Shown in pieces: positions 5,009 through 25,583 of a stretch of 25,714 nt of DNA. Both the position numbers and the translations under genes were made by a program. The notes under the pieces are model-generated. The model had not been told where the DNA came from. It did no database searches and saw nothing but the letters and a program-made list of their open reading frames with translations. The DNA is from Candidatus Latescibacterota bacterium (GTDB lineage Bacteria > Latescibacterota > UBA2968 > GCA-2709665), in NCBI GenBank assembly GCA_963662665.2, contig CAXXJS010000027.1, positions 1 to 25,714 of the forward strand, given 5' to 3'. The stretch's first letter is position 1, and each line of letters opens with the position of its first letter.

Positions 5009-5382
5009 CGTTCAAACAGAATGATCTGGGCCTGAATTGAGCCGGCCTGGTTCTGGTATTCGGGATTTTCGTTCATTGCCATAAATAGGGGTCCTTCGTA
5101 GGGGGAAAAAAAGTCGAAATAGACCCCTGCAGCCAGGGGTGGGTTTTCCGAACCGACCCTGCAGACAAGGGCGCCGACGTTGGTGCCGGGCAGAAGATAG
5201 TCGTCTCCGGCCAACTGGCCTTCGACCCCGTTCGCGCTGCACCACACGATCGTGGCGGGACGCATTTCCGGCGACCAGATACCCTCTGCCGAGATGACGA
5301 GTCGCTGTTCTCTCTTTACCCTCAGATACATCTCTTGCCAGATCGCATTTGGCCTGATGGTCTTGTTGACAGTAAGCGGCAT
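5005..5382 (-). CDS. Small LecA/PA-IL-like lectin-fold protein
   Basis: 125 aa. VISAEGIWS, GALVCRVG and GPLFMAMNENPEYQNQAGSIQAQI align by eye with LecA TIVAAGWAS, GALVMKIG and [25 protein letters not shown]. Translationally coupled to the permease. Confidence 0.65.
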   Translation of the reverse strand: MPLTVNKTIRPNAIWQEMYLRVKREQRLVISAEGIWSPEMRPATIVWCSANGVEGQLAGDDYLLPGTNVGALVCRVGSENPPLAAGVYFDFFSPYEGPLFMAMNENPEYQNQAGSIQAQIILFER

Positions 5383-5435
5383 TGGTCGATTTACCCGAAC
5401 ATGGGAACGGAAACGAGGGTTCGACTGGCAGCTAC

Positions 5436-5464
5436 AAGATATGGCCTCACATCGCCAATGTCAA
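5436..5464 (-). promoter_or_regulatory. Sigma70-type promoter for the lectin-permease-SBP unit
   Basis: On the minus strand: TTGACA (5464-5459), 17-nt spacer, TATCTT (5441-5436), about 50 nt upstream of the ATG at 5382. Confidence 0.65.
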
Positions 5465-5629
5465 GGGGACTGCCAAAGGAAATGCCGCCCTCCGGTTGCA
5501 GGCTGCCAGGACCCCGTGGTTCCAACTTCGTATGCCGTAGACCGCGCAGGCATAACGTACACGTCCGGACCCTTGCCTGGACCGGTCGATCGTAACCCGG
5601 TTCGGTCCGGAATGGCGAAAGGTAGCGTA

Positions 5630-7384
5630 ATGGATTTTCATATGACCGTGGACTTCAGAGACGACTTTACGGCCAGCGCGACACCCTGGACCGCCGAACG
5701 ATTCCGGGAGTACATCCGTCTCCTGGCCGATATGGGTATGAAGGGCATTCACTGGATTGAGATGGGGGACAAAGAAATGGGAAAATGGGATAAGGGTTCC
5801 TCTACAGATCTCAGAGGTGGGGCCCGCCGGTTCGTGGAGGAAGTTCCCAGCCCACTGGCCTTTCTGTGCGAGGAGGCGCATCGTATCGGAATGAAGGTCT
5901 ATGCGGTTCACAAGATCAACGATATGGCCAGTTTCGGCCCGGGCCGGTTTTATCCTCTGGGAACAGCGCCCGACGTTCTGCCGGGCATTCCCCAGATCGG
6001 GGGCTCTGGCCAGATGGCATTCCGATGGCTTCGGCAACATCCGGAAAAGCGCGCGGAAATTCACCCCTCATTATTGGAAACCACCGGTATCAGGAAACCC
6101 GTGGGGACCATTCGTCTCTGGCACGAAACCGAACGCTTTGGAGCGGTTCCGGGAATCGAGTTATTTGTGAGTGAGACCAATGCGCGGTACGTGCCCTACG
6201 AAGGGAACCGAGATATCCGCGTTTCTGTGAAGAGGAGAAGGCCGCCCGTATTTGCCCCGGCCCCGGAAAGGCGTTTCGCAAAGGAGGGAGATTTCGCCTG
6301 CGTCGAGATTTCCGGTCTTGAGATATCACAACCGTTTTTTTGTATCCGCTTTACAGGTGAATTCGGTCTGACGAACACACTCGCGGCGCTCCTGGAAGTT
6401 CAGGACGTCAACGGTGAAACCGTGGTTTTCACATGGGGACTCTCCCCCAGGTCTGATTATTCGAGATCTCTCGGACCGTTTGAGGAGGCCGGCATCGGTT
6501 TTGACGCCAACTGGTTCATTCCCTTTGAAGACCGTCCCGAAGATCACGACTGGCGATATTCCACGGGAAGGTACCGGCTGAACGTGGATAAGGTGCCGTT
6601 CATAGGAATCGCCCGCGGAAGAAACCGGTTTCTGACGTCCGTGGTCGAACTCGGGTACCCGGATGTCAGACGCTGGCTGCTCGACGTTGTTCAGTATGAA
6701 CTCGACGCGGGTTGCGACGGGGTGGACATCCGGGTCGAGAGTCATACGCAGAATATGGATTTTGAGAATTACGGATTCGGAAAACCGGTTGTCGAAGCAT
6801 TTCGCGATCGATATGGCGTGGACATCACGCGTGAATCGTTCGATCGGGGCGCCTGGCGGGAGCTGCGCGGAGAATTTTTCGATCTGTTTCTGAAAGACGC
6901 ATCTGAACTGATCCGGTCTCACGGAAAGGAAACGTGGATACACCTGACGGCCTATCCAAGCATGGAGCGGGAGCCCCGGCAGCAGAGCCTGCATCAGATG
7001 TACTGGAACTGGCGTAAATGGCTGGCGGAAGGCTGGGTGGACGTCGTGAATTTCAAACGGTTTCAGGCGAGGGGTCTGTCACCTGGTCAGCAGGAGGAAA
7101 TCGACAGATTCTATGGAAGGGCGCTGGACGTCTGCAGGGAAATGGACCTTCGGATGGCCTACACCCCCAATCCGAGATACGAGGGTATGACCGAAGAGGA
7201 TTTCGCAGACATGGAAGTTCGGAACATCCATCGTATCGCCAGAGACGGTTTCGAAGTCTTCAATTTCTACGAGGGTTGCACCTACATTCGTCTGAACGAA
7301 AACGGCTTTAAAGTAGACGCCGGGAGATTGTGGAAAGAGGTACGTGAATGGAACCGCAAAGCCGGTCTTCCACCGGGTCCATAG
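5630..7384 (+). CDS. Glycoside hydrolase-like TIM-barrel protein (GHL10/DUF187-like)
   Basis: Start placed at ATG 5630 after AAAGG; the ORF extension to 5252 overlaps the divergent gene and its promoter. Motifs LCEEAHRIGMKVYA, ELGYPDVRRW, AGCDGVDIR, YGFGKPVVEAFRDRYG and WRKWLAEGWVD. Confidence 0.65.
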   Translation: MDFHMTVDFRDDFTASATPWTAERFREYIRLLADMGMKGIHWIEMGDKEMGKWDKGSSTDLRGGARRFVEEVPSPLAFLCEEAHRIGMKVYAVHKINDMASFGPGRFYPLGTAPDVLPGIPQIGGSGQMAFRWLRQHPEKRAEIHPSLLETTGIRKPVGTIRLWHETERFGAVPGIELFVSETNARYVPYEGNRDIRVSVKRRRPPVFAPAPERRFAKEGDFACVEISGLEISQPFFCIRFTGEFGLTNTLAALLEVQDVNGETVVFTWGLSPRSDYSRSLGPFEEAGIGFDANWFIPFEDRPEDHDWRYSTGRYRLNVDKVPFIGIARGRNRFLTSVVELGYPDVRRWLLDVVQYELDAGCDGVDIRVESHTQNMDFENYGFGKPVVEAFRDRYGVDITRESFDRGAWRELRGEFFDLFLKDASELIRSHGKETWIHLTAYPSMEREPRQQSLHQMYWNWRKWLAEGWVDVVNFKRFQARGLSPGQQEEIDRFYGRALDVCREMDLRMAYTPNPRYEGMTEEDFADMEVRNIHRIARDGFEVFNFYEGCTYIRLNENGFKVDAGRLWKEVREWNRKAGLPPGP

Positions 7385-7433
7385 CCACTCTTGACCGACA
7401 CTTTCGTCGTCGGCTTGAAACAGGGGAATCTGA

Positions 7434-8993
7434 GTGATGCCGAATCAAACTATCGACGTGGGATCCGGTAAGCAATTGTTCGTGGACTCGAAGTTCGTTG
7501 ACACCAGCAGAGGCGTGACCTTCGTGATGAATCCGCCCTATCAGGCCCACGAACCGGTACTGATGCCCGACCAGGCGTGGGAACAGCGGACCGGAGCGAG
7601 TTACGGGATCTACAGCAGCATTCTCAAGGACGTTGACGGCAGGATTCGCGCCTGGTACCACGTTCGCATCGGCGACTACCGGTCCGGCCGGGACGAAGCC
7701 CACGTCGCCTACGCCGAGTCTGCCGACGGCATCCATTTCACCAAGCCGGTCCTGAATCTGTTCGAGTCCGGCGGGACAACGGCGAATAACATCGTCATCC
7801 CGGGCGATATCGGAGGAAGTTCCGTCTGGATCGATCCTCACGCGGACCCTGATTCCCGCTACAGGAACCAGGCAAAAGTGTATTCGCCGCCCGAGGTATG
7901 GGGGCATCTGCATATGCACGGATCGCCTGACGGGATTCATTGGAAATTCTCGCGCGACATACGGCTCAGCCGCGGCGGGTGGGATACGCAAACCGTCGTG
8001 TTCTGGGATCCGGCAGTTGGGCGTTACGTCATGTATACCCGGCACTGGTTTGCCAGGCGGCACGGCACAGCCGGGGGCAACACAAACTACCGTACTGTGC
8101 GCCGGCTGGAGTCCGACGACTTGCATGAGTGGGGAAGCCAGCGAATCGTAATGTGGCCCGACGACGTGGATATGGGTACCTATGACACGCCTGCTTCCGT
8201 TCGCCCCGAGGGACCCGAACGTCCCTACGGCCGGGTGCCGGTGGACTACTACGGCGCCCTGGTCTTCAAATACCCTGACCCTGATGGTGTGTACGTCATG
8301 CTGGCCAACGCCAACTGGTATTGGTACGACCGCGAGCCGGTTGTCACCGTTGTACGCGACGATCTGGGCGTCCCGCGTGAAGAAACACGGAATATCTATG
8401 GACCCAGCCGTTTCGACGCCCGGCTTTCCGTCAGCCGGGACGGTATCAACTTTAAGCGATGCGGAGGCCGCAGGGCCTTTCTGAAGCCGGGTACGGAGGG
8501 AAGTTTCTCTTCCCGCATGGTATGGGCGATGCCAAGTCCCATACCGATGGGGGATGAGTTGTGGTTCTATTACAGCGGGATAAACAGGGATCACGACGGC
8601 ATTGTCGATCCAACGGCAGGAAGGCTTCTCAGCGGCATCGGCCGGTCCGTGATGCGGTTGGATGGATTCGTGTCCGCGGACGCCGGATACGGTGGCGGCG
8701 AACTGGTAACGCCGGTGATTCGATTCGAGGGGGCGAAACTGGAATTGAACCTGGATACCGCCGGCGGAGGCTCGGTGAAGGTGGAACTTCAGGACCATCA
8801 GGGCCGGCCGATAGCGAATTATGCCGAATCGGACGCCTCATTCTTGTGCGGTAACTCCGTAGGGATGCCCGTACGGTGGGGCGAGAAGACGGAGGTAGGC
8901 GAGTTGTCGGGCAGGCCGATCAAAATACGCTTTGTCATGCGCGACTGCAAGCTGTATGCGTTTCAGTTTAGGGCGTCGATGCGCTCAGAGTGA
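7434..8993 (+). CDS. Five-bladed beta-propeller glycoside hydrolase-like protein (GH32/GH43-like) with a C-terminal beta-sandwich
   Basis: QLFVD N-terminus; repeated Asp-box-like blades YAESADGIHFTKP, SPDGIHW, ESDDLHEW and SVSRDGINF; DELWFYYSG and MRLDGFVS motifs. Start is GTG 7434 or ATG 7437. No signal peptide. Confidence 0.75.
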   Translation: MMPNQTIDVGSGKQLFVDSKFVDTSRGVTFVMNPPYQAHEPVLMPDQAWEQRTGASYGIYSSILKDVDGRIRAWYHVRIGDYRSGRDEAHVAYAESADGIHFTKPVLNLFESGGTTANNIVIPGDIGGSSVWIDPHADPDSRYRNQAKVYSPPEVWGHLHMHGSPDGIHWKFSRDIRLSRGGWDTQTVVFWDPAVGRYVMYTRHWFARRHGTAGGNTNYRTVRRLESDDLHEWGSQRIVMWPDDVDMGTYDTPASVRPEGPERPYGRVPVDYYGALVFKYPDPDGVYVMLANANWYWYDREPVVTVVRDDLGVPREETRNIYGPSRFDARLSVSRDGINFKRCGGRRAFLKPGTEGSFSSRMVWAMPSPIPMGDELWFYYSGINRDHDGIVDPTAGRLLSGIGRSVMRLDGFVSADAGYGGGELVTPVIRFEGAKLELNLDTAGGGSVKVELQDHQGRPIANYAESDASFLCGNSVGMPVRWGEKTEVGELSGRPIKIRFVMRDCKLYAFQFRASMRSE

Positions 8994-9050: not shown

Positions 9051-9869
9051 TTAAGCGTGTTTTTCTAGAAGTGCCTTGCTCTTCAGAACACCCTCGTGAT
9101 CGTTGGATCTACCCTCGAATTCGATCCCGTAAGGGTTGTCGTAACCCGCCTCCCTCAGAATGGCGAGCGCGGCGGCGCAGTCGATTTCCCGCGACTCGCC
9201 GTCCGCCGTGAAGCTGAGGAATTTTGCATGGGTCGCCCAGGCGTACGGTGCGACCATTCTGAGGTTTTCCAGCTTGTCGTCTTCTGCCGGCCAGTTCAGA
9301 AAATCGGCAAGGACCCGGCAGTGATCGCTTCCAACCGCGTCCATGATCCTGAGTATGTTTGCCGCCGATACCGACACGCCCCCGTGATTCTCCATCAGCA
9401 GCCGGATACCCGCTTGGGCACAAAGTTCGGTGAGTTCGCCAAAGCTTTCGATGCATTTTCCAATATGGGTCTCGGTCACGGATTCGCCCCTGCCGGGGCC
9501 GGTGTTGGCGCGAAACGCGTTGCAGCCCAGCCCCAGGCAGGCGTCGATCCATTTTCTGTGGTTCTCAACGGCTTGTTTTCGTTCCTTTTCGTCGGCCGAG
9601 GCGAGATCGCCGTGGCCGTCCACTGCGATATTCAGCAGCCGTACGCCCGCATCCTCCGCGCGTTGACGCAGTTCCATGAGATATCCATCGGCCAGGCAGC
9701 TGGTCGCGGGGCTCTCCGGATCGGCGTAGGCAAAGAATGGGCTGTTGAGTTCCAACAGACGAATGCCGAATTCGTCAACGGCCAGAGCGGGAAAGTCAAG
9801 GAGACGCAGGGGGTTTTCGGTTGTCCTGAACCGCCGTTGAATGCTCCAGCCCGCGAGTGAGATTTCCAT
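9051..9869 (-). CDS. Sugar phosphate isomerase/epimerase (xylose isomerase-like TIM barrel)
   Basis: ATG at 9869 with GGAGG RBS. Metal-ligand motifs LMENHGG, LADFLNW, THAK and GIEFEG. 272 aa. Confidence 0.88.
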   Translation of the reverse strand: MEISLAGWSIQRRFRTTENPLRLLDFPALAVDEFGIRLLELNSPFFAYADPESPATSCLADGYLMELRQRAEDAGVRLLNIAVDGHGDLASADEKERKQAVENHRKWIDACLGLGCNAFRANTGPGRGESVTETHIGKCIESFGELTELCAQAGIRLLMENHGGVSVSAANILRIMDAVGSDHCRVLADFLNWPAEDDKLENLRMVAPYAWATHAKFLSFTADGESREIDCAAALAILREAGYDNPYGIEFEGRSNDHEGVLKSKALLEKHA

Positions 9870-9903
9870 GGGGGTCGCCTCCGTCGTTGTATTGGGTTTG
9901 CGC

Positions 9904-9937
9904 TTGCATTTGCGGCTGAGTGGGAATATAATATTCC
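9904..9937 (+). promoter_or_regulatory. Sigma70-type promoter for the ggt-like/aspC unit with an overlapping palindrome
   Basis: TTGCAT (9904-9909), 17-nt spacer, perfect TATAAT (9927-9932). The -10 lies inside the palindrome GGAATAT-A-ATATTCC (9923-9937). Confidence 0.65.
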
Positions 9938-10097
9938 GCCGCATGCATTGCCAGCGCTTCCTGTGCTTCCGGCCGCCAACCCTGAACCGGAATTGGAAGC
10001 GCTCGTTCAGCGGATTCCGTAGTACGAAAGATACACACACAGGAACAGACGTACTCACGGACAGCGGTCTTTGCCGTTTATTTAGAAGGGATCTCAC

Positions 10098-11666
10098 GTG
10101 AAGGGCATGGTAACCGCACCCCAACCTCTGGCGGTAGACGTTGGCGTGAAGGTGCTGGCCGACGGCGGCAATGCCGTCGACGCGGCCGTAGCGGCGGCGT
10201 TTGTTCAGATGGTGGCAACGCCGCGCAGTTGCGGTGTAGGCGGTTTCGGTATGATGAACATCCATACGTCGGAAGGGGACCGGATTCTGGATTTCCATGG
10301 GAAGGCCGGCGCCCGGGTCCGGCCCGATATGTGGGAGCATGAAATCGTCCGTGAAAATGCCACGGGGTACGGATACACGCTCAGGGGACAGGTCAACGAA
10401 CGGGGCTATGGCGCGGTAACAACCCCCGGAACGGTGGCCGGCCTTTACAAGGCACAGGCGGATTTCGGGACGATGTCGTGGCGGGAGGCTCTCCAGCCGG
10501 GTATCGCGATTGCAACGGACGGATACGAAGTTACCCGCACGGAGGCGGCGTCTTGGAAACGGGTACCCACTCCCGAGACGACACCTTGGATAACCGTGGC
10601 GACCTCGCCCCACGAGGGCGGAGGCGAGTTGATTGCCAACCCGGATATGGCCAGAACATTCTCGGTTCTGGCCGAAGGCGGCGCCGACGTTTTCTATCGC
10701 GGGGATCTGGCCAGGGCAATTGCCGACGATATGGAAAAGGGCGGCGGATTTGTTACGCTGGAAGACCTCAACCGTTACGAAGTGACGGTTACGCGGCCGC
10801 TGTATTCCCGGTACCGGAAATATACCGTTGCTTCCAATCAGCCGCCCGGAGGCGGGTTGACCATTCTTCAAATGCTCAAGATCCTGGAGGGCTATGGTCT
10901 TGCGGATATGGAACACCTGTCGCCGGAGTACGTGTATACCGTATCGATGGCGATGAAGGCCGCCTGGGCCGACAGGGCGGACCGGATCGGGGATCCGGCA
11001 TTTGTCGACGTGCCCGTTGAAGACCTTCTGTGTGAGAAACGCGCGGCGGCGTGGCGCCGCCGCATCGATGCCCGGAAAGCGATCACGATCCCTCGATGGC
11101 AACCGGCTGAACCGCCGAGTACCACCCATATTTCCGTTGTTGACAGGTGGCGCAATGTGGTGGGTCTGACGCACTCGCTGGGATCCGGATCGGACGTGAT
11201 CACACCGGGATTGGGGTTTATGTACAATAACTGCATGAATTGTTTCAACCCCGTTCCCGGTCAGGTGAATTCCATTGAACCGGGCAAGTCCAGAACAACG
11301 GGTATGGCGCCCACGCTGGTGAAACTGGGTGACAAACCGTTTTTCAGCGTTGGTGCGCCCGGAGGTACCCGGATCGTGACGGGGATTCTCCATGCCATTC
11401 TGAACGTGATCGATCACGGCATGACGGCGACGGAAGCCATCGCGGCTCCCCGATTCGACTGCCAGAGCGACGTGATCGTCGCCCACTCCCGAATCGCGCC
11501 TTCCGTCTGCAATGGCGTTCGCGACATCGGCCATGACGTCCATTCCCTTCTCAACGGCTACGGTGGAATTGCGTCTGTGCATGGGATCGTTATCGATCCG
11601 TCCACCGGAGTCCTCGACGGCGGGGCGGATCCCGGTTCGCCCGGGATGGCGATGGCGGCAATCTGA
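10098..11666 (+). CDS. ggt: Gamma-glutamyltransferase-family (Ntn-hydrolase) protein, cytoplasmic, with an atypical substrate pocket
   Basis: GGNAVDAAVAAA, TPGTVAG, QPPGGG, autocleavage site STTHISVVD, GAPGGTRI and GGADP motifs. GTG start with AGAAGGGG RBS. No signal peptide. Confidence 0.88.
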   Translation: MKGMVTAPQPLAVDVGVKVLADGGNAVDAAVAAAFVQMVATPRSCGVGGFGMMNIHTSEGDRILDFHGKAGARVRPDMWEHEIVRENATGYGYTLRGQVNERGYGAVTTPGTVAGLYKAQADFGTMSWREALQPGIAIATDGYEVTRTEAASWKRVPTPETTPWITVATSPHEGGGELIANPDMARTFSVLAEGGADVFYRGDLARAIADDMEKGGGFVTLEDLNRYEVTVTRPLYSRYRKYTVASNQPPGGGLTILQMLKILEGYGLADMEHLSPEYVYTVSMAMKAAWADRADRIGDPAFVDVPVEDLLCEKRAAAWRRRIDARKAITIPRWQPAEPPSTTHISVVDRWRNVVGLTHSLGSGSDVITPGLGFMYNNCMNCFNPVPGQVNSIEPGKSRTTGMAPTLVKLGDKPFFSVGAPGGTRIVTGILHAILNVIDHGMTATEAIAAPRFDCQSDVIVAHSRIAPSVCNGVRDIGHDVHSLLNGYGGIASVHGIVIDPSTGVLDGGADPGSPGMAMAAI

Positions 11667-11809
11667 GCGTTCGATGCGGATCGAGCCGCCCTGTGTCGAA
11701 AATTTCACCGCCGCAGGTGTCCGGATCGGGGTTACGCATTCTACATAACAAAGATCAGGGTGGCGGTTCAGGGCCAACATGGACGGCCAGGATCTGGAAA
11801 GGAAACGAA

Positions 11810-18655: not shown

Positions 18656-19357
18656 ATGACTTTGCTCTTTCTATTGCCGGTTTTGTGCTTCCTGATCGTC
18701 CTTGCGCCCGTGCGTCTGTGGGCGCGAGGCCACAATGGCTCGGGGCGGGGGCCAATCCTGGAAATCCGCTTGAGACCGTGGATCGGTCTGGTGGGTATCC
18801 GGCTTTTCTGCGCTGACGGAGGTTGGCGTGTTGGCGCGCTTCTGGGATGGTGGACAGTGTGGGCTGCGCCATTGAGAGAGGGAAAAAGCAGGAAAAAGAA
18901 AAAACGGGGACACGGCGCGAGGGACAAGGCGGAAGGGGACGTTTCTACCGTGTTTTCGGCAAGAGTTGAACGGTTCGTACGGACCGTACAGCGGCTGAGG
19001 ATGCTGTCATTGCCCCTGCGGCGTTCTGCGTTACGATTTCTGAAAGGTTTCCGTCTTCGCCGCATCAAATGCAAGGTAACGTTCGGCGCATCTGATCCGG
19101 CCACGACCGGGCAGATTTACGGATACTTTATGGCCGCTTCGTCTCTCGTCGGTGCAACAGGAAGCGTCGACGTGACACCCGATTTCAAAACACGGCGTCT
19201 GGACGGGGAAGCCCGGGTGGAAATACGGATTTATCCCCACAGGCTCTTATCGGCATCCGTTTACCTGGGATGGCGCGTTGCACTTGCGTGGTTTTCGGAA
19301 CGGCGCAACCGGAACCGGCCTGAGGAAAACATTGTTGGCGCCGGCGCGACGGGTTGA
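18656..19357 (+). CDS. DUF2953 (YtfI-like) membrane-anchored protein
   Basis: N-terminal hydrophobic anchor ending LAPVRL, a basic linker, the motif FGASDPATTGQIYG...VTPDF, and adjacency to a YtfJ/GerW gene. Confidence 0.75.
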   Translation: MTLLFLLPVLCFLIVLAPVRLWARGHNGSGRGPILEIRLRPWIGLVGIRLFCADGGWRVGALLGWWTVWAAPLREGKSRKKKKRGHGARDKAEGDVSTVFSARVERFVRTVQRLRMLSLPLRRSALRFLKGFRLRRIKCKVTFGASDPATTGQIYGYFMAASSLVGATGSVDVTPDFKTRRLDGEARVEIRIYPHRLLSASVYLGWRVALAWFSERRNRNRPEENIVGAGATG

Positions 19358-19378
19358 GCGGGCAGTTATGGAGGTACT

Positions 19379-19780
19379 ATGTCGGTTGAGGATCTAATCA
19401 GGACAATGATGACGGAATTCCGTCAAATCGTCAAGACGGAGACGGTAGTGGGGGAGCCTATTGACATAGGGGGGACAGTTGTGGTGCCCGTTTCCAGGAT
19501 TTCGTTCGGGTTCGGCGCGGGCGGAGGCGCGGACAAGTCGGACGGGGGCGGAAGCGGCACGGGAGGCGGGGCATCCGTGGAGCCCCTTGCATTCGTTGTG
19601 ATTCGAGACGGCAAGGCCCAGATTCTGCCCGTGCAGGAAAAAGAAGGGTCCATTAAAGGGTTGTTGGATTTGGCGCCGGACCTTCTGGCGAAGGCGAAGG
19701 CATTCAAAGAGAAGAGAGATCGAAAGAAAGCAGAGGTGGATGCCGATGCCGGTTCCGGCGATGACGACGTAAGCGCTTAG
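19379..19780 (+). CDS. GerW/YtfJ family protein
   Basis: VKTETVVGEPI, VVPVSRISFGFGAGGG and GSGTGGGASVEPLAFVVI motifs; GGAGG RBS. Confidence 0.88.
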   Translation: MSVEDLIRTMMTEFRQIVKTETVVGEPIDIGGTVVVPVSRISFGFGAGGGADKSDGGGSGTGGGASVEPLAFVVIRDGKAQILPVQEKEGSIKGLLDLAPDLLAKAKAFKEKRDRKKAEVDADAGSGDDDVSA

Positions 19781-19792
19781 GCCGGGGCAGCC

Positions 19793-21022
19793 ATGAACCG
19801 GCTTCTGCTTTTAATTCCAACAACAACCTATCGTACCCGCGACTTTATGGCAGCGGCGTCGAAGCTCGGCGTATCCGTCGTCGTAGGGTCCGAACGCAGC
19901 CAGGCGCTGTGGAGTCAGACCCCGGGAAGTACGCTGACGCTTGACTTCACGGAGCCTGCAGCATCGGTCGCGACGATTGTCGCCTTTTCAAAGGCGTACC
20001 CCATCCGGTCTGTAGTGGGCGTGGACGACGAGACCGTCGTGCTCGCCGCGATGGCGTGCAGCGCGCTCGGACTTCCACACAATGAGGTGACGTCGGTCCG
20101 GGCGTCCCGGTACAAACACGTGATGCGTCAGTTGCTTGCAGAAAAAGGCCTGCCCTCGCCCGGGTTCAGGCTTTTTTCATTTTCGGACAAACCGGAAACC
20201 GTCGCCCCGACGGTCGACTATCCGTGCGTGCTGAAGCCCGTGTTCCTGTCCGGCAGCCGGGGTGTGATCCGCGCAAACGAAGAAGCGGATTTCGTGACCG
20301 CTTTCGACCGGATTCGGCGGCTGATTTCGGAATCTGTACATGAGGCGCCCGAAGGCGGAGATTGTATTCTCGTGGAGGACTACATTCCCGGCCGGGAAGT
20401 CGCGCTGGAGGGATTGCTGGTTGATGGAGAACTCCGGACGCTCGCCATTTTCGACAAACCCGATCCGCTCCACGGCCCTTATTTTGCCGAGACGTTTTAC
20501 GTTACGCCCTCCCGGCTTTCCGAATGCCGGCAGGCGCAGATCCGCGAGACCGCGCAGGCGGCCGCGCGCGCGCTGGGGTTGTGCGTGGGGCCCGTACACG
20601 CCGAGCTTCGGCTGAACCCGCGTGGCATCTACGTGGTGGAAATCGCCGCGCGGTCAATCGGCGGTCTGTGTTCGCGGATATTGCGTTTTGGCGCCCGTAT
20701 GTCTCTGGAGGAATTGATTCTGCGCCAGGCAACCGGTTACGCTCCCGGCGATTTGAGGAGGGAAGAAACCGCGGCTGGCGTAATGATGCTGCCGGTGCCA
20801 GAGGCGGGGATACTGCAATGCGTGAGGGGGGTGGCACGCGCACGGCGCGTGCCCGGAATCATCGACGTGGTGATTACCGTTCCTCAGGGCCAGCACGTAC
20901 AACCGCTGCCTGAAGGTGACAGGTATCTGGGGTTCATCTTCGCCCGCAAGAAGACATCCGGGGAGGTGGAAGCGGTGCTTCGCGAGGCATACCGACGGCT
21001 CCGAGTTGTGATTGAGGGATGA
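19793..21022 (+). CDS. ATP-grasp enzyme, L-amino-acid-ligase-like
   Basis: YKHVMR, YPCVLKPVFLSGSRGV, LVEDYIPGREVALEG, HAELR and EIAARSIGG motifs, with a C-terminal LAL-type domain (YLGFIFAR). Confidence 0.88.
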   Translation: MNRLLLLIPTTTYRTRDFMAAASKLGVSVVVGSERSQALWSQTPGSTLTLDFTEPAASVATIVAFSKAYPIRSVVGVDDETVVLAAMACSALGLPHNEVTSVRASRYKHVMRQLLAEKGLPSPGFRLFSFSDKPETVAPTVDYPCVLKPVFLSGSRGVIRANEEADFVTAFDRIRRLISESVHEAPEGGDCILVEDYIPGREVALEGLLVDGELRTLAIFDKPDPLHGPYFAETFYVTPSRLSECRQAQIRETAQAAARALGLCVGPVHAELRLNPRGIYVVEIAARSIGGLCSRILRFGARMSLEELILRQATGYAPGDLRREETAAGVMMLPVPEAGILQCVRGVARARRVPGIIDVVITVPQGQHVQPLPEGDRYLGFIFARKKTSGEVEAVLREAYRRLRVVIEG

Positions 21023-21080
21023 GAAAGGGGCAATTCATCGGGTGGAGCCGTGAACGGCGCGACCGGAACCAACTTTCTTC

Positions 21081-21233
21081 TGTTCTGTCCCGGAAATAAG
21101 TTGCCTGAATTCGACCGCCTGGTCGCCCGGTCCGCAAGGCGCCACCGACCTGCGTAAGGTCGGCGAGCGAGGGGAACGTAGCGAGACGGGATGAATCGGC
21201 GGTTGAGTGGTGAGGAATCCTTGGGACAAAACA
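21081..21233. mobile_element. MITE/REP-like structured element between convergent genes
   Basis: Terminal IRs TGTTCTGTCCC (21081-21091) / GGGACAAAACA (21223-21233, 1 mismatch). Inner stem TTCGACCGCC (21110-21119) / GGCGGTTGAG (21198-21207, two G-U pairs). Core CAAGGCG (21135-21141), hairpin CCGACCT-GCGTA-AGGTCGG, then AACGTAG (21175-21181). Confidence 0.6.
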
Positions 21234-21247
21234 CCAGGTCCTTCCGA

Positions 21248-22708
21248 TCACACAAGAGCGAACTGCTCTTCGGTTGGTTCCGCTCAGCAATACCACGGCT
21301 CGGTGAGGCGCGGAAGGGGGATGCGGGTCGAATCTGCATCGGAATTCCGGACTGGCGCCGGTCGGCCCATCATGTCGTAAACATGCGATCTGATCCCGTG
21401 GAAGATCTCCCGTCGCGCCGCGTTTCGGTTCTGAAGGCGTGCGACCAACCCGGTAAGTTCGCACTGGAGCCGGTCCAAACGGACGTCCGGATGCGCCCAC
21501 GGGTAAGACAGGGCTTCCGGTTCGAAGGGCCCCACCAGGTCGCGAACCTGGGCGAGGTCGAGGAGCCTCGATCCCCCGGGGATGAGCAGGCGGATGGTGA
21601 GTTGCACGGGAGAGATATGTTCGATCAGGTCCAGGTCGGCAAGGCTGTCCAGGAAGCCGGCATACCCCTTCATCGTTATCCAGGGCGTGAACGGTATGAA
21701 CGTCGGATTCATGACGAGTCGGTGTTTCCTGAATAGGTGTACGACCTCGAAGAAATCGTCTACCGTATGGCCCTTGTCCAACAGCGAGAGGACACGGTCG
21801 TCGAGGGACTCAACGGCGGTCGTCACGAGTGCGCAGCCGGTGTCACGGAGGCGGGGCAGATAACGGCGGTACTTCAGCAGATGTTCGACTTTGACGGTGA
21901 TATCGTACGTCACATCGGGAAACTCCGCGTGGAGCTTTTCAACCAGAGGCAAGGCGTGGCCGATGCCGTTGAAGAAGTCGGGATCGCCGAACGTGATGTG
22001 GCCGGCCCCTGCAGCAACTTGCTTCCCAATGTCTACCAGCACGATTTCCGGTTGCACGATGCGAAATCTGCCCCGGTACACGGGCACCACCGGGCAATGG
22101 CGACAGAGATGTTTGCAGCCCCGGCTGGCCTCTGTATAGCCGACGGTTTTCAGGCGGCCGTCACCGGTGGACAGACGCGCGTAACGGGACAGGTCCGGTA
22201 GGCCTCTCCTGTCGGGCGGCCGAAACCGCTGTCTGTCGAGTGAAACAACGGTTTCGTCCAGGTTTCCAGCAGTGATCGAGGCCCCTCGGAGGCGGTTGCA
22301 TAGTTGAAGCAGGCCGTCTTCGAATTCACCCCCGAGTATGGTCTGCGCGCCCAGGCTTCTAAGGAAAGTTTCGTTGACTGAGGCGTAAAGACCATAGAAA
22401 CAGAGGTGCGTGTCGGCATTCTGTTTTCGCGTCCTCAGTGCAAGCGGTACGGCAAGACGGGTCGCGGTATGCATCGGCACGTAAAATGCAACCATGTCGG
22501 CGTTGCGAACGGCCTCGTCAGGGAAGTTCTCTATTGAAACGTCCGCCAGGACAACGTCGATGCCCGCCCGCCGCAACCAGCCAGCCGGCGAGGCCAAACC
22601 GAATGGCTGACGACCCAATTCATAGGTGGACACCAGAACGACATTGAACGGACGCGAACCGGAAGTGGCAGGCAACGGTATTTGGTCCCTGAAAAATACG
22701 GCAGACAC
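21248..22708 (-). CDS. CUAEP/CCAEP-tail radical SAM selenoprotein (UGA at 21286-21284 read as Sec); 486 aa
   Basis: CxxxCxxC motif RGCKHLCRHC, N-terminal B12-binding-like domain (STYELGRQPFGLAS) and ITFGDPDF. After PRLTEPWYC the sequence continues TGA GCG GAA CCA ACC GAA GAG CAG TTC GCT CTT GTG TGA, i.e. U-AEPTEEQFALV-stop. The exact start codon is uncertain. Confidence 0.88.
21254..21270 (-). promoter_or_regulatory. Candidate bacterial SECIS hairpin
   Basis: In the mRNA: UGA, 13 nt, then AAGAGC-AGUUC-GCUCUU (perfect 6-bp stem, 5-nt loop with G at loop position 2 followed by U). The loop begins 19 nt after the UGA. Confidence 0.65.
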
Positions 22709-22750
22709 CGGGCGTAACCCGGTAAGTCTGCCGTTTGTTGTATGAGGTCG

Positions 22751-23335
22751 TTATTTTGAGGACTGGTAATACGGGTTCGCGCCATCCGCGTGTTCGGTCA
22801 CGTCGAGAATTTCTTCAATTTCGGGCACGGCCTCCTTAATGAGGACTTCGACACCCTGCTTGAGCGTCACGTCCACCATACCGCAACCCTGGCATCCGCC
22901 GCCGAACTGGACGAACGCCTTGTTGTCTCTTACATCGATCAGCGAAATATGACCGCCGTGCATGGCCACGCTCGGGTTGATCTTCTCGTCGATAATGTTC
23001 TGGATTTTCTCGGCCGTGGTGCCTTTCAGGTGATGGGGTACCTTATTGGGATTTTCAATCTTGAACCCTCTCCCCATCAGGCCGTCCACAAAGTCCAGGG
23101 TGATGTCCTCGGCATACGGAGCGCTATCCGGGTCCACGTAAACGTTAAACCCCTCGAACGGCGTGACGTCGTCGTCGGCTTCTTCCTGTCCGCTGGCGAC
23201 GAAGGCGAGTCGGTAGTTGGCCTGTAGAGGTGATACCGCCTCGGCCTTGACACGAACGCCAACGATCGCCGATTCCTGGTTCCGTATCAGGTTGACAACC
23301 TCCTTCTGCGCGGCTTCGGTTACGGTGATTTTCAT
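22751..23335 (-). CDS. nfuA: Fe-S biogenesis protein NfuA (degenerate A-type domain plus NifU-C domain)
   Basis: ITVTEAA...LDFVDGLMGRGFKIENPN N-domain lacking Cys, then INPSVAMHGG, FGGGCQGCGMVDVTLKQGVE and DVTEHADGANPYY. Confidence 0.88.
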   Translation of the reverse strand: MKITVTEAAQKEVVNLIRNQESAIVGVRVKAEAVSPLQANYRLAFVASGQEEADDDVTPFEGFNVYVDPDSAPYAEDITLDFVDGLMGRGFKIENPNKVPHHLKGTTAEKIQNIIDEKINPSVAMHGGHISLIDVRDNKAFVQFGGGCQGCGMVDVTLKQGVEVLIKEAVPEIEEILDVTEHADGANPYYQSSK

Positions 23336-23375
23336 TTCGACCTTCCCTTAAATAAGATGTGCATTGCCAGGGCGG

Positions 23376-23870
23376 TCAGGACTCAAGCGCCACGATAGGC
23401 TTTGCAGGATGTTCCCGGTCTATTTTTTCCTGGATCTTCATCAGCGCAGACAGCAGGTCCTCGGGTCGCGGCGGACAGCCGGGCACGTAGATATCAACGG
23501 GCAGGAATTGATCGACGCCCTGTACCAGCGTATACGTATTGAAAACGCCTCCGGACGATGCGCATGCGCCCATCGAAATCACCCATTTGGGATCCGGCAT
23601 CTGATCGTAGATTTTCTTGAGTACAGGCATCATCTTAATCGATATACGGCCTGACACGATGAGCAGGTCGGACTGGCGGGGCGAGAACCGCACGGCTTCC
23701 GCGCCGAAGCGGGCCATATCGAAACGCCCTGAAAGCGTAGCCATCATTTCGATGGCGCAGCAGGCCGTGCCGAACGGCATTGGCCAGAGGGATGACTTGC
23801 GCGCCCAGTTAATCATTTTGGATAGCGTTGTGGTAACAACGTTGTCGCCAAGTCCCGTCTCAAGTCCCAT
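23376..23870 (-). CDS. nuoB: NADH-quinone oxidoreductase subunit B-like protein (stand-alone)
   Basis: [45 protein letters not shown] and [13 protein letters not shown] motifs. All four N2-cluster cysteines are present. Confidence 0.92.
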
Positions 23871-23976
23871 TGTTCGCCCTCACAGAATGGTTGAATTCGT
23901 CCCCTGATGAGTTGAACGTCCGCGGCGGTGAATCTCCGGCAGTCTTTCCGGCCGGTCGCGCGTCGCGGGCAGCATG

Positions 23977-24456
23977 CTAACCCGATACCTGAATCAGTTC
24001 CTCCGTCACGTTCCGTAAACAGGCATCCATGGCCTGTTCTTCGCCCAGCAGGTCATCAAGTGTAACGCGGCTCAGCATCCGATCGATAATGGATTGCACC
24101 GAAGTCCAGAGCGACCGGATGGAGCAATCGACGGAGTGCGTACACAGTTCTCCCCGGCCGGCGTGTTCATCGCAGAATTCGGGACTGAACAGGCGACCGC
24201 CAAGCGCTCCCAGTACATCGCCAACCACAATCAGGTCGGCCGATTTCGCGAGTCGGTACCCACCGGACTGACCACGGACGCTTTCAACGAATCCCCCCAT
24301 GCGCAGCAGGCGCATCAGCTTTGCGACATTTGGGATGGAAAGGCCTTCTATCTGGCTGATTTCCGGAATGGAAAGGCCGTCGCCGGTTTCTTTCTGCCGC
24401 CGGCCGATCTGAAGCAGGCACCGAAGCCCGTATTCTTCCCCTGCGCTCAGTTTCAT
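23977..24456 (-). CDS. Rrf2-family transcriptional regulator (Fe-S sensing, IscR-like)
   Basis: MKLSAGEEYGLRCL start (ATG 24456), wHTH wing VESVRGQSGGYRLA, Cys cluster C-x9-C-x5-C followed by SIRSLW, and VTLDDL. Confidence 0.88.
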   Translation of the reverse strand: MKLSAGEEYGLRCLLQIGRRQKETGDGLSIPEISQIEGLSIPNVAKLMRLLRMGGFVESVRGQSGGYRLAKSADLIVVGDVLGALGGRLFSPEFCDEHAGRGELCTHSVDCSIRSLWTSVQSIIDRMLSRVTLDDLLGEEQAMDACLRNVTEELIQVSG

Positions 24457-24594
24457 GGAACTATCGAATTCCCGGACGGGTTGTCGTCTGGTTGATTGAA
24501 CCTGTTCGGCCAACGGCGCTACAGATGCTTGGAGACAGCGTTTTCGAACGCCACTCACGATAAAAGAACGTGGCGGCTCGTTTACGGATGCCGG

Positions 24595-25107
24595 CTATAG
24601 CAGCCCAAGCTCAAGTCTTGCCGCTTCGGACATCATCTCAGGGTTCCACGGCGGGTCGAAGGTCAGATCCAGGTTCACGTCTCGGACACCGGAAACCGAA
24701 CGTGTGGCGCTTTCCACCTGTCCTGGCAGGATGCCCGCGGCCGGACAGGCGGGGGAGGTGAGGGTCATCTGGACGTAGGTCATCCCCGTGGGTTCAACGT
24801 TGATTTCGTAAATCAGGCCGATATCGTAAATATTGACCGGAATTTCCGGGTCGAAGACCGTGCGATGGGCGGCGATAATATTCTCTCTGATGGCCTTTGT
24901 GTCAATCGGATCGCCGGATTCGTCTGCAGTCTCGCGCGCTTCGGCCATATCCTGTTTTTCTTCATCGCGTCTGGCGGCGTGCGTTTCCAGCGCGCTCGCG
25001 TCCACGGGCTTCGCATCCTCTGTCGTGTTGGAATTCGACGGGTCTTTTCGATGCGGATCGTTTTCATTGTCGTTCTTGTAAAGGCGGTTTAAAAGTCGTT
25101 CAAGCAA
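24595..25107 (-). CDS. sufT: SUF system DUF59/MIP18 (SufT/PaaD-like) Fe-S maturation protein
   Basis: VFDPEIPVNIYDIGLIYEI, MTLTSPACP and FDPPWNPEMMSEAARLELG motifs; TTG start with GGAGG RBS. Confidence 0.85.
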   Translation of the reverse strand: MLERLLNRLYKNDNENDPHRKDPSNSNTTEDAKPVDASALETHAARRDEEKQDMAEARETADESGDPIDTKAIRENIIAAHRTVFDPEIPVNIYDIGLIYEINVEPTGMTYVQMTLTSPACPAAGILPGQVESATRSVSGVRDVNLDLTFDPPWNPEMMSEAARLELGLL

Positions 25108-25130
25108 GATGGATTCCTCCCGATGGACGC

Positions 25131-25583
25131 CTACTCGGTGGTCACCGGCAACTCGCGGTCTTCAAGTGCGGCCAGGAGCGTATGCCATGACAGGGTTGCG
25201 CATTTGATGCGCATAGGGAACTCTCTCACGCCTGCGAAGACGGCCAGTTTTCCGATGCCGTCGGTGACGGGTCGGGTAGAAACGTCACTGGTGACCAGGT
25301 CGTGAAACTTTCCGAAGAGCGCCTGGGTTTCTTGAAGGCTCCGTCCCTTGACCGCATCGGTCATCAGGGAAGCCGAAGCCTTGGAAATGGCGCACCCCGC
25401 TCCTTGAAAAGCGATATCCGCGATGCGGTCGCCGTCGAGATTGACGTAGAGGCTCAAATGATCGCCGCACAACGGGTTGTGTCCGTGGGACGTTCGATCC
25501 GCGGGGGACATGGACCGGTAGTTGCGCGGACTCCGATTGTGGTCGAGAATGACCTGCTGGTAGAGTTCCCGGAGGTCGGACAT
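25131..25583 (-). CDS. sufU: SUF system NifU-family sulfur-transfer/scaffold protein
   Basis: LYQQVILDH, NPLCGD, GCAISKASASLM and PMRIKCATLSW motifs. Confidence 0.93.
   Translation of the reverse strand: MSDLRELYQQVILDHNRSPRNYRSMSPADRTSHGHNPLCGDHLSLYVNLDGDRIADIAFQGAGCAISKASASLMTDAVKGRSLQETQALFGKFHDLVTSDVSTRPVTDGIGKLAVFAGVREFPMRIKCATLSWHTLLAALEDRELPVTTE

Follow-up and report, generated by a model that had tools for sequence, protein, structure and literature searches.

The window considered here is a stretch of 25,714 nucleotides (nt) from a Candidatus Latescibacterota bacterium. It is one entire contig (C27) of an assembly that is 92% complete, with 5.4% contamination, in 66 contigs, and gene context in this genome is therefore confined to it. 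On its minus strand lies a gene for a radical S-adenosylmethionine (SAM) enzyme in which a TGA codon interrupts what is predicted to be a longer coding sequence. The open reading frame (ORF) found with translation table 11 spans 21284..22708 (474 amino acids (aa), GTG start) and ends in ...PRLTEPWYC, followed by the TGA at 21286-21284. If this TGA is read as selenocysteine (Sec, U), conceptual translation extends the tail as C-U-AEPTEEQFALV up to a second TGA at 21250-21248. A sequence-only reading of the window had proposed exactly this, a selenoprotein gene at 21248-22708 with the succession WYC-TGA-AEPTEEQFALV-TGA, and its letters and coordinates are all correct. The features of the gene, including a hairpin that resembles a selenocysteine insertion sequence (SECIS), are:

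21251..22675, minus strand: predicted coding sequence of a CUAEP-tail radical SAM selenoprotein (from NF040546, Pfam Radical_SAM, homologue starts and an AlphaFold2 model)
21284..21286, minus strand: in-frame TGA, predicted to encode Sec as residue 464 of 475, or 475 of 486 with the GTG start (from the TGA/Cys column in homologues)
21254..21270, minus strand: putative SECIS-like hairpin AAGAGC-AGUUC-GCUCUU (from comparative pairing, covariation and specificity to TGA forms)
21248..21250, minus strand: TGA taken as the true stop, after ...AEPTEEQFALV (from homologue stops, and from the end of conservation and of codon periodicity)

Family and extent of the gene

The read-through protein matches the NCBIfam family NF040546, 'CUAEP/CCAEP-tail radical SAM (seleno)protein', with 612.2 bits (E = 5.7e-184) against a curated cut-off of 500 bits. 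Residues 23-484 align with profile positions 1-467 of 468 and the match therefore crosses the TGA; the family named in the sequence-only reading was the right one, and the match to it is full length. A whole-genome profile search found a single NF040546 copy (606.1 bits, with one TGA inside). The protein also scores 42.7 bits against Pfam Radical_SAM (cut-off 29.5), and its CxxxCxxC motif, formed by C198, C202 and C205 (486-aa numbering), is invariant in an alignment of 20 sequences. Comparison was made with 30 loci excised from genomes of the same phylum and with a wider set, the best 80 of 568 confirmed relatives from a search of a genome collection, 79 of which cover the Sec site. The tail motif C-[U/C]-A-E-P occurs in 30/30 phylum loci and in 79/80 wider loci, the sole miss (L119) ending at a contig edge. 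The window gene is a plain member of NF040546, with which it shares the CxxxCxxC motif, the ...W-[YF]-C-[U/C]-A-E-P tail and the alternation of Cys and Sec, and the database labels of close homologues agree with the NF040546 naming. Judged from family identity and recoding jointly, the gene very probably encodes a Sec-containing member of NF040546.

The length of the product is a separate matter. In homologues from the same genus, an ATG or TTG start aligns with codon 12 of the window ORF, which is TTG at 22675, and the protein reported by the gene caller (P0003, 463 aa) likewise begins at this TTG. The NF040546 match has residue 23 as its first residue (486-aa numbering), and residues 1-10 of the structural model have a predicted local distance difference test score (pLDDT) below 50. 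Therefore translation probably starts at TTG 22675, giving 475 aa with the pair Cys463-Sec464, rather than at GTG 22708, and the 486 aa given in the sequence-only reading is the less likely length. At the other end, homologues have a stop codon, TAA, TAG or TGA, at or near the position of 21248..21250. The second TGA was considered as a further Sec codon and ruled out, as TAA or TAG takes its place in homologues and the sequence is no longer conserved beyond it.

That ORF calling had missed the tail, as was claimed from the letters, is borne out well beyond this genome. Beside the 463-aa P0003, the 120 best database homologues show it: 113 have W-[YF]-C as their last residues, which is where a caller that takes the TGA for a stop would cut them, and the remaining 7 carry CCAEP. 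The practical consequence is that gene callers shorten NF040546 proteins, the 113 database proteins stopping at ...WYC being the visible result.

Predicted selenocysteine at the in-frame TGA

A search of the genome for the machinery of Sec insertion found all four components (selA, selB, selC and selD) above their respective cut-offs. The genes for selA (560 bits), selB (372 bits) and tRNA-Sec (73.6 bits; gathering score 47) are contiguous on one contig (C16), and selD (356 bits) is on another (C40). Across the phylum, selA is present in 131/168 genomes. The radical SAM family is present in 33/168, and 32 of these 33 have selA, the lone miss being an 80%-complete assembly in 820 contigs. The selD match itself (G000:C40:300099-301019, locus L014, 355.6 bits) holds one in-frame TGA, because of which the selenophosphate synthetase of this genome is probably a selenoprotein too.

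Each of the 33 radical SAM matches in the phylum contains exactly one in-frame TGA. The 30 excised loci all read TEPWYC-U-AEP(T/S/P).., with a stop 11 to 14 codons further on, and the 11 codons that follow the TGA are retained in 30/30. Over these 11 codons the column entropy is 0.20, 0.15 and 0.74 bits at codon positions 1, 2 and 3, as against 1.85, 1.78 and 1.76 bits past the second stop. The third-position wobble of a coding sequence thus persists beyond the TGA and ends at the second stop.

The wider loci and database relatives show what replaces Sec. The family is widespread, with records labelled Acidobacteriota, Chloroflexota, Methylomirabilota, Calditrichia, Actinomycetota and Entotheonella, and is mostly Sec-using: in the 79 wider loci, most of which come from few phyla so that the counts are not independent, the site codon is TGA in 64 and a Cys codon (TGC or TGT) in 15; the one further locus ends before the site. 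Among the 150 best representatives at 50% identity, 42 have CC[AS]EP, 38 end in ...C and 70 are fragments or unclassifiable. In the 20-sequence alignment, the second Cys of the CCAEP forms falls in the TGA column, and AEP(T/S)..Q is kept after it in both forms. The alternation of Cys and Sec claimed in the sequence-only reading is therefore seen (Cys in 15/79 loci, 7/120 proteins and 42/150 representatives), and the alignment of homologues that it called for has the expected Cys in the TGA column with AEP behind it.

The putative RNA signal is a 6-base-pair stem that begins 13 nt past the UGA and carries an apical loop, AGUUC, that contains G and U. Bacterial SECIS elements are reportedly described in bSECISearch as hairpins shortly downstream of the UGA that obey a rule on spacing and on a G in the loop. 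In the 30 phylum loci, 98.3% of the hairpin cells are paired and two pairs are changed on both sides. Among 65 Sec-form sequences, 53 cells show a two-sided change, against 21.8 in shuffles, and none of 500 shuffles reached as high. The stem letters of Sec forms vary yet still pair, as in AAGAGC/GCUCUU, GGGACC/GGUCCC, GCGGGC/GCCUGC and CCGGCC/GGCCGG. If a single 7-pair structure is imposed on all 65 aligned sequences, pairing comes to 79%, which is an underestimate because a subset uses a 4-nt loop with the register shifted by one; both registers were then scored. At the fixed place, 56/64 Sec forms but only 2/15 Cys forms have an unbroken stem of at least 5 pairs, and the mean folding energy is -11.4 kcal/mol for Sec forms versus -9.0 kcal/mol for Cys forms (one-sided Mann-Whitney p = 0.004).

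Several observations weigh against this account of the TGA and its hairpin. Folded alone (81 nt), the window hairpin is no more stable than its shuffles (z = -0.04); this lone-fold value is uninformative and was therefore replaced by the comparative analysis. A scan of 21150-21350 against Rfam (E <= 10) gave no family match, only three unrelated ones at chance level. The loop CAG-K-U also spells Gln-Phe/Val/Leu codons and is present in 9/15 Cys forms, because of which its conservation is not independent of coding. Finally, counts from related genomes and sequences are not independent. The contrary explanation is that the TGA is a genuine stop, that the protein ends in ...WYC and that the conserved stretch downstream is a non-coding RNA element. 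The 113 truncated homologues would fit, as would the unremarkable stability of the lone hairpin and the lack of an Rfam match. It is nevertheless very improbable: the third-position wobble runs on to the second stop, AEP-T..Q is retained at the protein level in the Cys forms, for which an RNA element is unnecessary, the curated NF040546 profile covers the tail, and the Sec machinery of the genome is complete. Decoding of TGA 21286-21284 as Sec is accordingly predicted from these comparisons with near certainty.

The selenoprotein call is correct but already known, because both the family and its Sec site have been curated and are in print. A preprint by Haft (10.1101/2022.07.06.499078) includes NF040546 among the CU-motif selenoproteins, CU denoting adjacent Cys and Sec, and calls it uncharacterised; this preprint was the only relevant result of a full-text search on the CUAEP/CCAEP tail. 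A full-text literature search found no functional study of the NF040546 family, the supplements of the ArsL papers cited below being outside that search, and a combined literature search on radical SAM, selenocysteine, ATP-grasp and arsinothricin likewise found none. This analysis adds a consensus for the hairpin, a probable start at TTG and a co-inherited ATP-grasp gene; the co-inherited ligase and the iron-sulfur (Fe-S) carrier neighbours were not found in print in these searches. The selenoprotein call itself is routine. The interest lies in the reaction, as the nearest characterised relative, ArsL, carries out unusual carbon-arsenic chemistry.

Fold, relatives and neighbouring genes

An AlphaFold2 model built from the 20-sequence alignment has a mean pLDDT of 89.8 and a predicted template modelling (TM) score of 0.89. 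Residues 451-486 are modelled with lower confidence (block means 61, 80, 61 and 49). The model predicts an N-terminal Rossmann domain like those that bind B12, a radical SAM barrel and a C-terminal domain, from which the Cys-Sec pair would extend on a tail. The match to Pfam B12-binding (21.8 bits) is under the cut-off of 32.1. The best Foldseek matches are AprD4 (6fd2; E = 1.2e-19, TM 0.66), TsrM (6wte), MgmA (9ccb) and OxsB (5ul4), with MiaB, CysS and TokK further down. AprD4, TsrM, MgmA and OxsB have the same order of Rossmann domain, barrel and C-terminal domain, but they are only 14-19% identical to the window protein and none has a Cys-Sec tail. A sequence search of the Protein Data Bank (PDB) with the single protein gave no match and a profile query only distant radical SAM enzymes; the PDB copy searched held no structure of ArsL or of the NF040546 family.

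The homology to ArsL that had been stated in the sequence-only reading is real, although below family level. The ArsL profile NF040542, next in score after NF040546, matches residues 24-415 with 269.9 bits (E = 4e-80), and its cut-off of 450 is not reached. ArsL is described as cleaving SAM to a 3-amino-3-carboxypropyl (ACP) fragment, which is joined to As(III) held on three Cys residues of its tail (10.1101/2024.02.01.577332; 10.64898/2026.04.29.721666). The two proteins share homologous Rossmann and radical SAM domains, and each ends in a short tail, Cys-rich in ArsL and bearing the C-U pair here. The tails differ in composition: that of ArsL reads R-C-C-L-K-C and has three Cys, whereas the window protein has C-U-AEP with two ligands, and it lacks the As(III)-binding RCCLKC motif, the ArsL-profile alignment ending at residue 415. 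The genes differ in setting as well, the window gene having neither arsM nor other ars neighbours and being co-inherited with an ATP-grasp ligase. Adjacent Cys-Sec pairs also occur in HgcA, in SAO-locus proteins and in a few MerT proteins, which the Haft preprint (10.1101/2022.07.06.499078) lists as other CU-motif selenoproteins, reading the pair as a motif for heavy-metal interaction. As far as that listing allows a comparison, these proteins share the pair with the window protein and otherwise belong to unrelated folds and families.

The genes that flank the radical SAM gene in the window are:

19793..21022, plus strand: ATP-grasp ligase of the L-amino-acid-ligase type, convergent and downstream (Pfam ATPgrasp_N, ATP-grasp_4 and LAL_C2)
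22751..23335, minus strand: NfuA-type Fe-S carrier gene, directly upstream (Pfam Fe-S_biosyn and NifU)
23376..25583, minus strand: NuoB-like gene, Rrf2 regulator, SufT-like gene and SufU, the tail of an Fe-S assembly cluster (Pfam and NCBIfam matches)

The ATP-grasp gene has only weak, sub-threshold NCBIfam matches (BacD, DdaF). Of the 168 phylum genomes, exactly the 33 that have the radical SAM gene also have its orthologue (E <= 1e-60), and the remaining 135 lack it at this threshold. This co-occurrence includes unlinked pairs (G038, G039, G040), in which the two genes are on different contigs or 1.3 Mb apart. The ligase gene is within the 1.5-kb flank in 25/30 phylum loci. Of the 79 wider loci, 67 extend more than 1.5 kb downstream; 40 of the 79 have the ligase gene as a neighbour, co-directional and downstream in 31, convergent in 7 and upstream in 2. 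Presence in 33/33 genomes with the radical SAM gene and 0/135 without it makes the pair a concrete two-gene unit for enzymologists.

On the other side, the NfuA-type gene scores 160 bits against TIGR03341, below the cut-off of 269, and it lies directly upstream of the radical SAM gene in 30/30 phylum loci. The two are probably co-transcribed. A scan of 20950-23450 for promoters and terminators returned no promoter-like site, either between the NfuA-type and radical SAM genes or elsewhere, and two terminator-like sites, not above shuffles. Fe-S and iron genes recur in the wider loci: a YggX-type iron-trafficking gene is present in 33/79, in 9 of them directly upstream on the same strand, and Nfu in 8/79, in 7 of them directly upstream. 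Aconitase occurs in 19/79, divergently, and MoaA upstream in 11/79 (8 on the opposite strand, 3 on the same). Neighbour clusters 0, 3, 4, 5, 9, 10, 13 and 16 have no Pfam match and were dropped as shadow ORFs, because by position each falls within an ATP-grasp, YggX, Nfu or aconitase gene of the opposite strand.

The NuoB-type gene is a lone one. It occupies 23376-23870 on the minus strand, belongs to the family of the 20-kDa subunit of NADH dehydrogenase (240 bits to NF005012), and lies between the Rrf2 regulator and NfuA with no further nuo gene next to it. Of the 30 phylum loci, 18 are arranged in this way within their 1.5-kb flanks.

Proposed tail chemistry and the rest of the window

Family membership, Sec recoding, domain layout and ligase co-inheritance are computational results; the reaction proposed here goes beyond them by analogy. 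SelB and tRNA-Sec would decode TGA 21286-21284 as Sec, directed by the hairpin 13 nt downstream, to give a product of about 475 aa ending in ...WY-Cys-Sec-AEPTEEQFALV. SAM would be cleaved reductively at the [4Fe-4S] cluster to yield the ACP fragment, as in ArsL, and the Cys-Sec arm would present the acceptor of this fragment, a soft atom (As, Se, S or a metal). The resulting amino-acid-like product would then be ligated by the co-inherited L-amino-acid-ligase-type enzyme. Binding of a metalloid by the C-U pair, as the sequence-only reading suggested, is a candidate function drawn from analogy with the RCCLKC tail of ArsL. ArsL-like chemistry of this kind, with a soft atom on the arm and a product passed to the ATP-grasp enzyme, is a tentative best guess, based on the homology to ArsL and on a partner of the kind that ligates free amino acids. 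That the two enzymes form an undescribed pathway, in which ACP transfer to a soft atom is followed by ligation to give a dipeptide-like small molecule, is doubtful. Such a product, if it exists, might serve Fe-S or redox homeostasis rather than act as an antibiotic, a role suggested because the genes adjoin Nfu, YggX and suf genes.

The proposal has to contend with a number of contrary facts where arsenic is concerned. The tail offers two chalcogen ligands versus the three Cys of ArsL, no arsenic-related Pfam family was found among the 24 window ORFs scanned or the 18 commonest neighbour clusters, and the neighbours are housekeeping Fe-S genes. The link to the ATP-grasp gene, for which co-occurrence covered one phylum (168 genomes) and 5 other genomes, is not universal either. 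None of these five has the ATP-grasp gene next to the radical SAM gene; three carry an orthologue-level match elsewhere (44-53% identity), and the other two have no such match with this query, one giving matches of only 25-28% identity and the other none.

Some of the same facts would suit a different use of the arm. In thioredoxin reductase, the C-terminal Gly-Cys-Sec-Gly forms a selenenylsulfide, and the Cys-Sec tail of the window protein might likewise be a redox or hydrogen-atom-donor arm that quenches a product radical or passes on reducing equivalents, in an enzyme with canonical 5'-deoxyadenosyl chemistry. The invariants of the alignment fit this, as the tail has only two conserved chalcogen residues, which are adjacent, and no third Cys. 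The pLDDT of 49-80 for residues 451-486, below that of the core, is as expected for a mobile arm, and AprD4, whose solved fold comes closest, belongs to the canonical 5'-deoxyadenosyl radical SAM enzymes. The nearest characterised relative points the other way, however, since the tail of ArsL (E = 4e-80) is described as binding substrate and not as shuttling electrons, and no redox partner gene is conserved among the neighbours examined. This use of the tail is rather unlikely. A relay role for the tail, with sulfur or selenium carried in persulfide or selenosulfide form and the enzyme thereby tied to the Fe-S assembly and trafficking genes, is less probable again, and improbable: it would account for NfuA directly upstream in 30/30 phylum loci, for YggX (9/79) and Nfu (7/79) in the same place and on the same strand in the wider loci, and for SufU, the SufT-like gene and the Rrf2 regulator upstream in the window, but Fe-S carriers beside a radical SAM gene may just supply its own cluster, the 79 loci come mostly from few phyla and are not independent, and the co-inherited ligase is left without a role. 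It is very improbable that the gene is orthologous to that of ArsL and that its product uses As(III) and SAM to make hydroxyarsinothricin. Homology to NF040542 over some 390 residues speaks for it, yet the score is 269.9 bits against a cut-off of 450, the RCCLKC tail is missing from a protein whose alignment ends at residue 415, and neither arsM nor another ars gene is found in the window or among the commonest neighbour clusters.

Further ORFs lie elsewhere in the window. Directly upstream of the ATP-grasp gene and on the same strand, 18656-19780 (plus) holds a DUF2953 gene together with a 'sporulation' gene of the GerW/YtfJ type, and YtfJ fragments are seen at the edge of the flank in 10/30 phylum loci. 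The long ORFs at 5252-7384 (plus), 7308-8798 (minus) and 7434-8993 (plus), which would encode proteins of 496-710 aa, gave no Pfam match at E <= 1e-5, and two of them overlap on opposite strands, either of which may be the real one. A 909-aa ORF at 9051-11780 (minus) has no match over its N-terminal 690 residues, whereas its last ~210 residues match the xylose isomerase-like TIM barrel PF01261.

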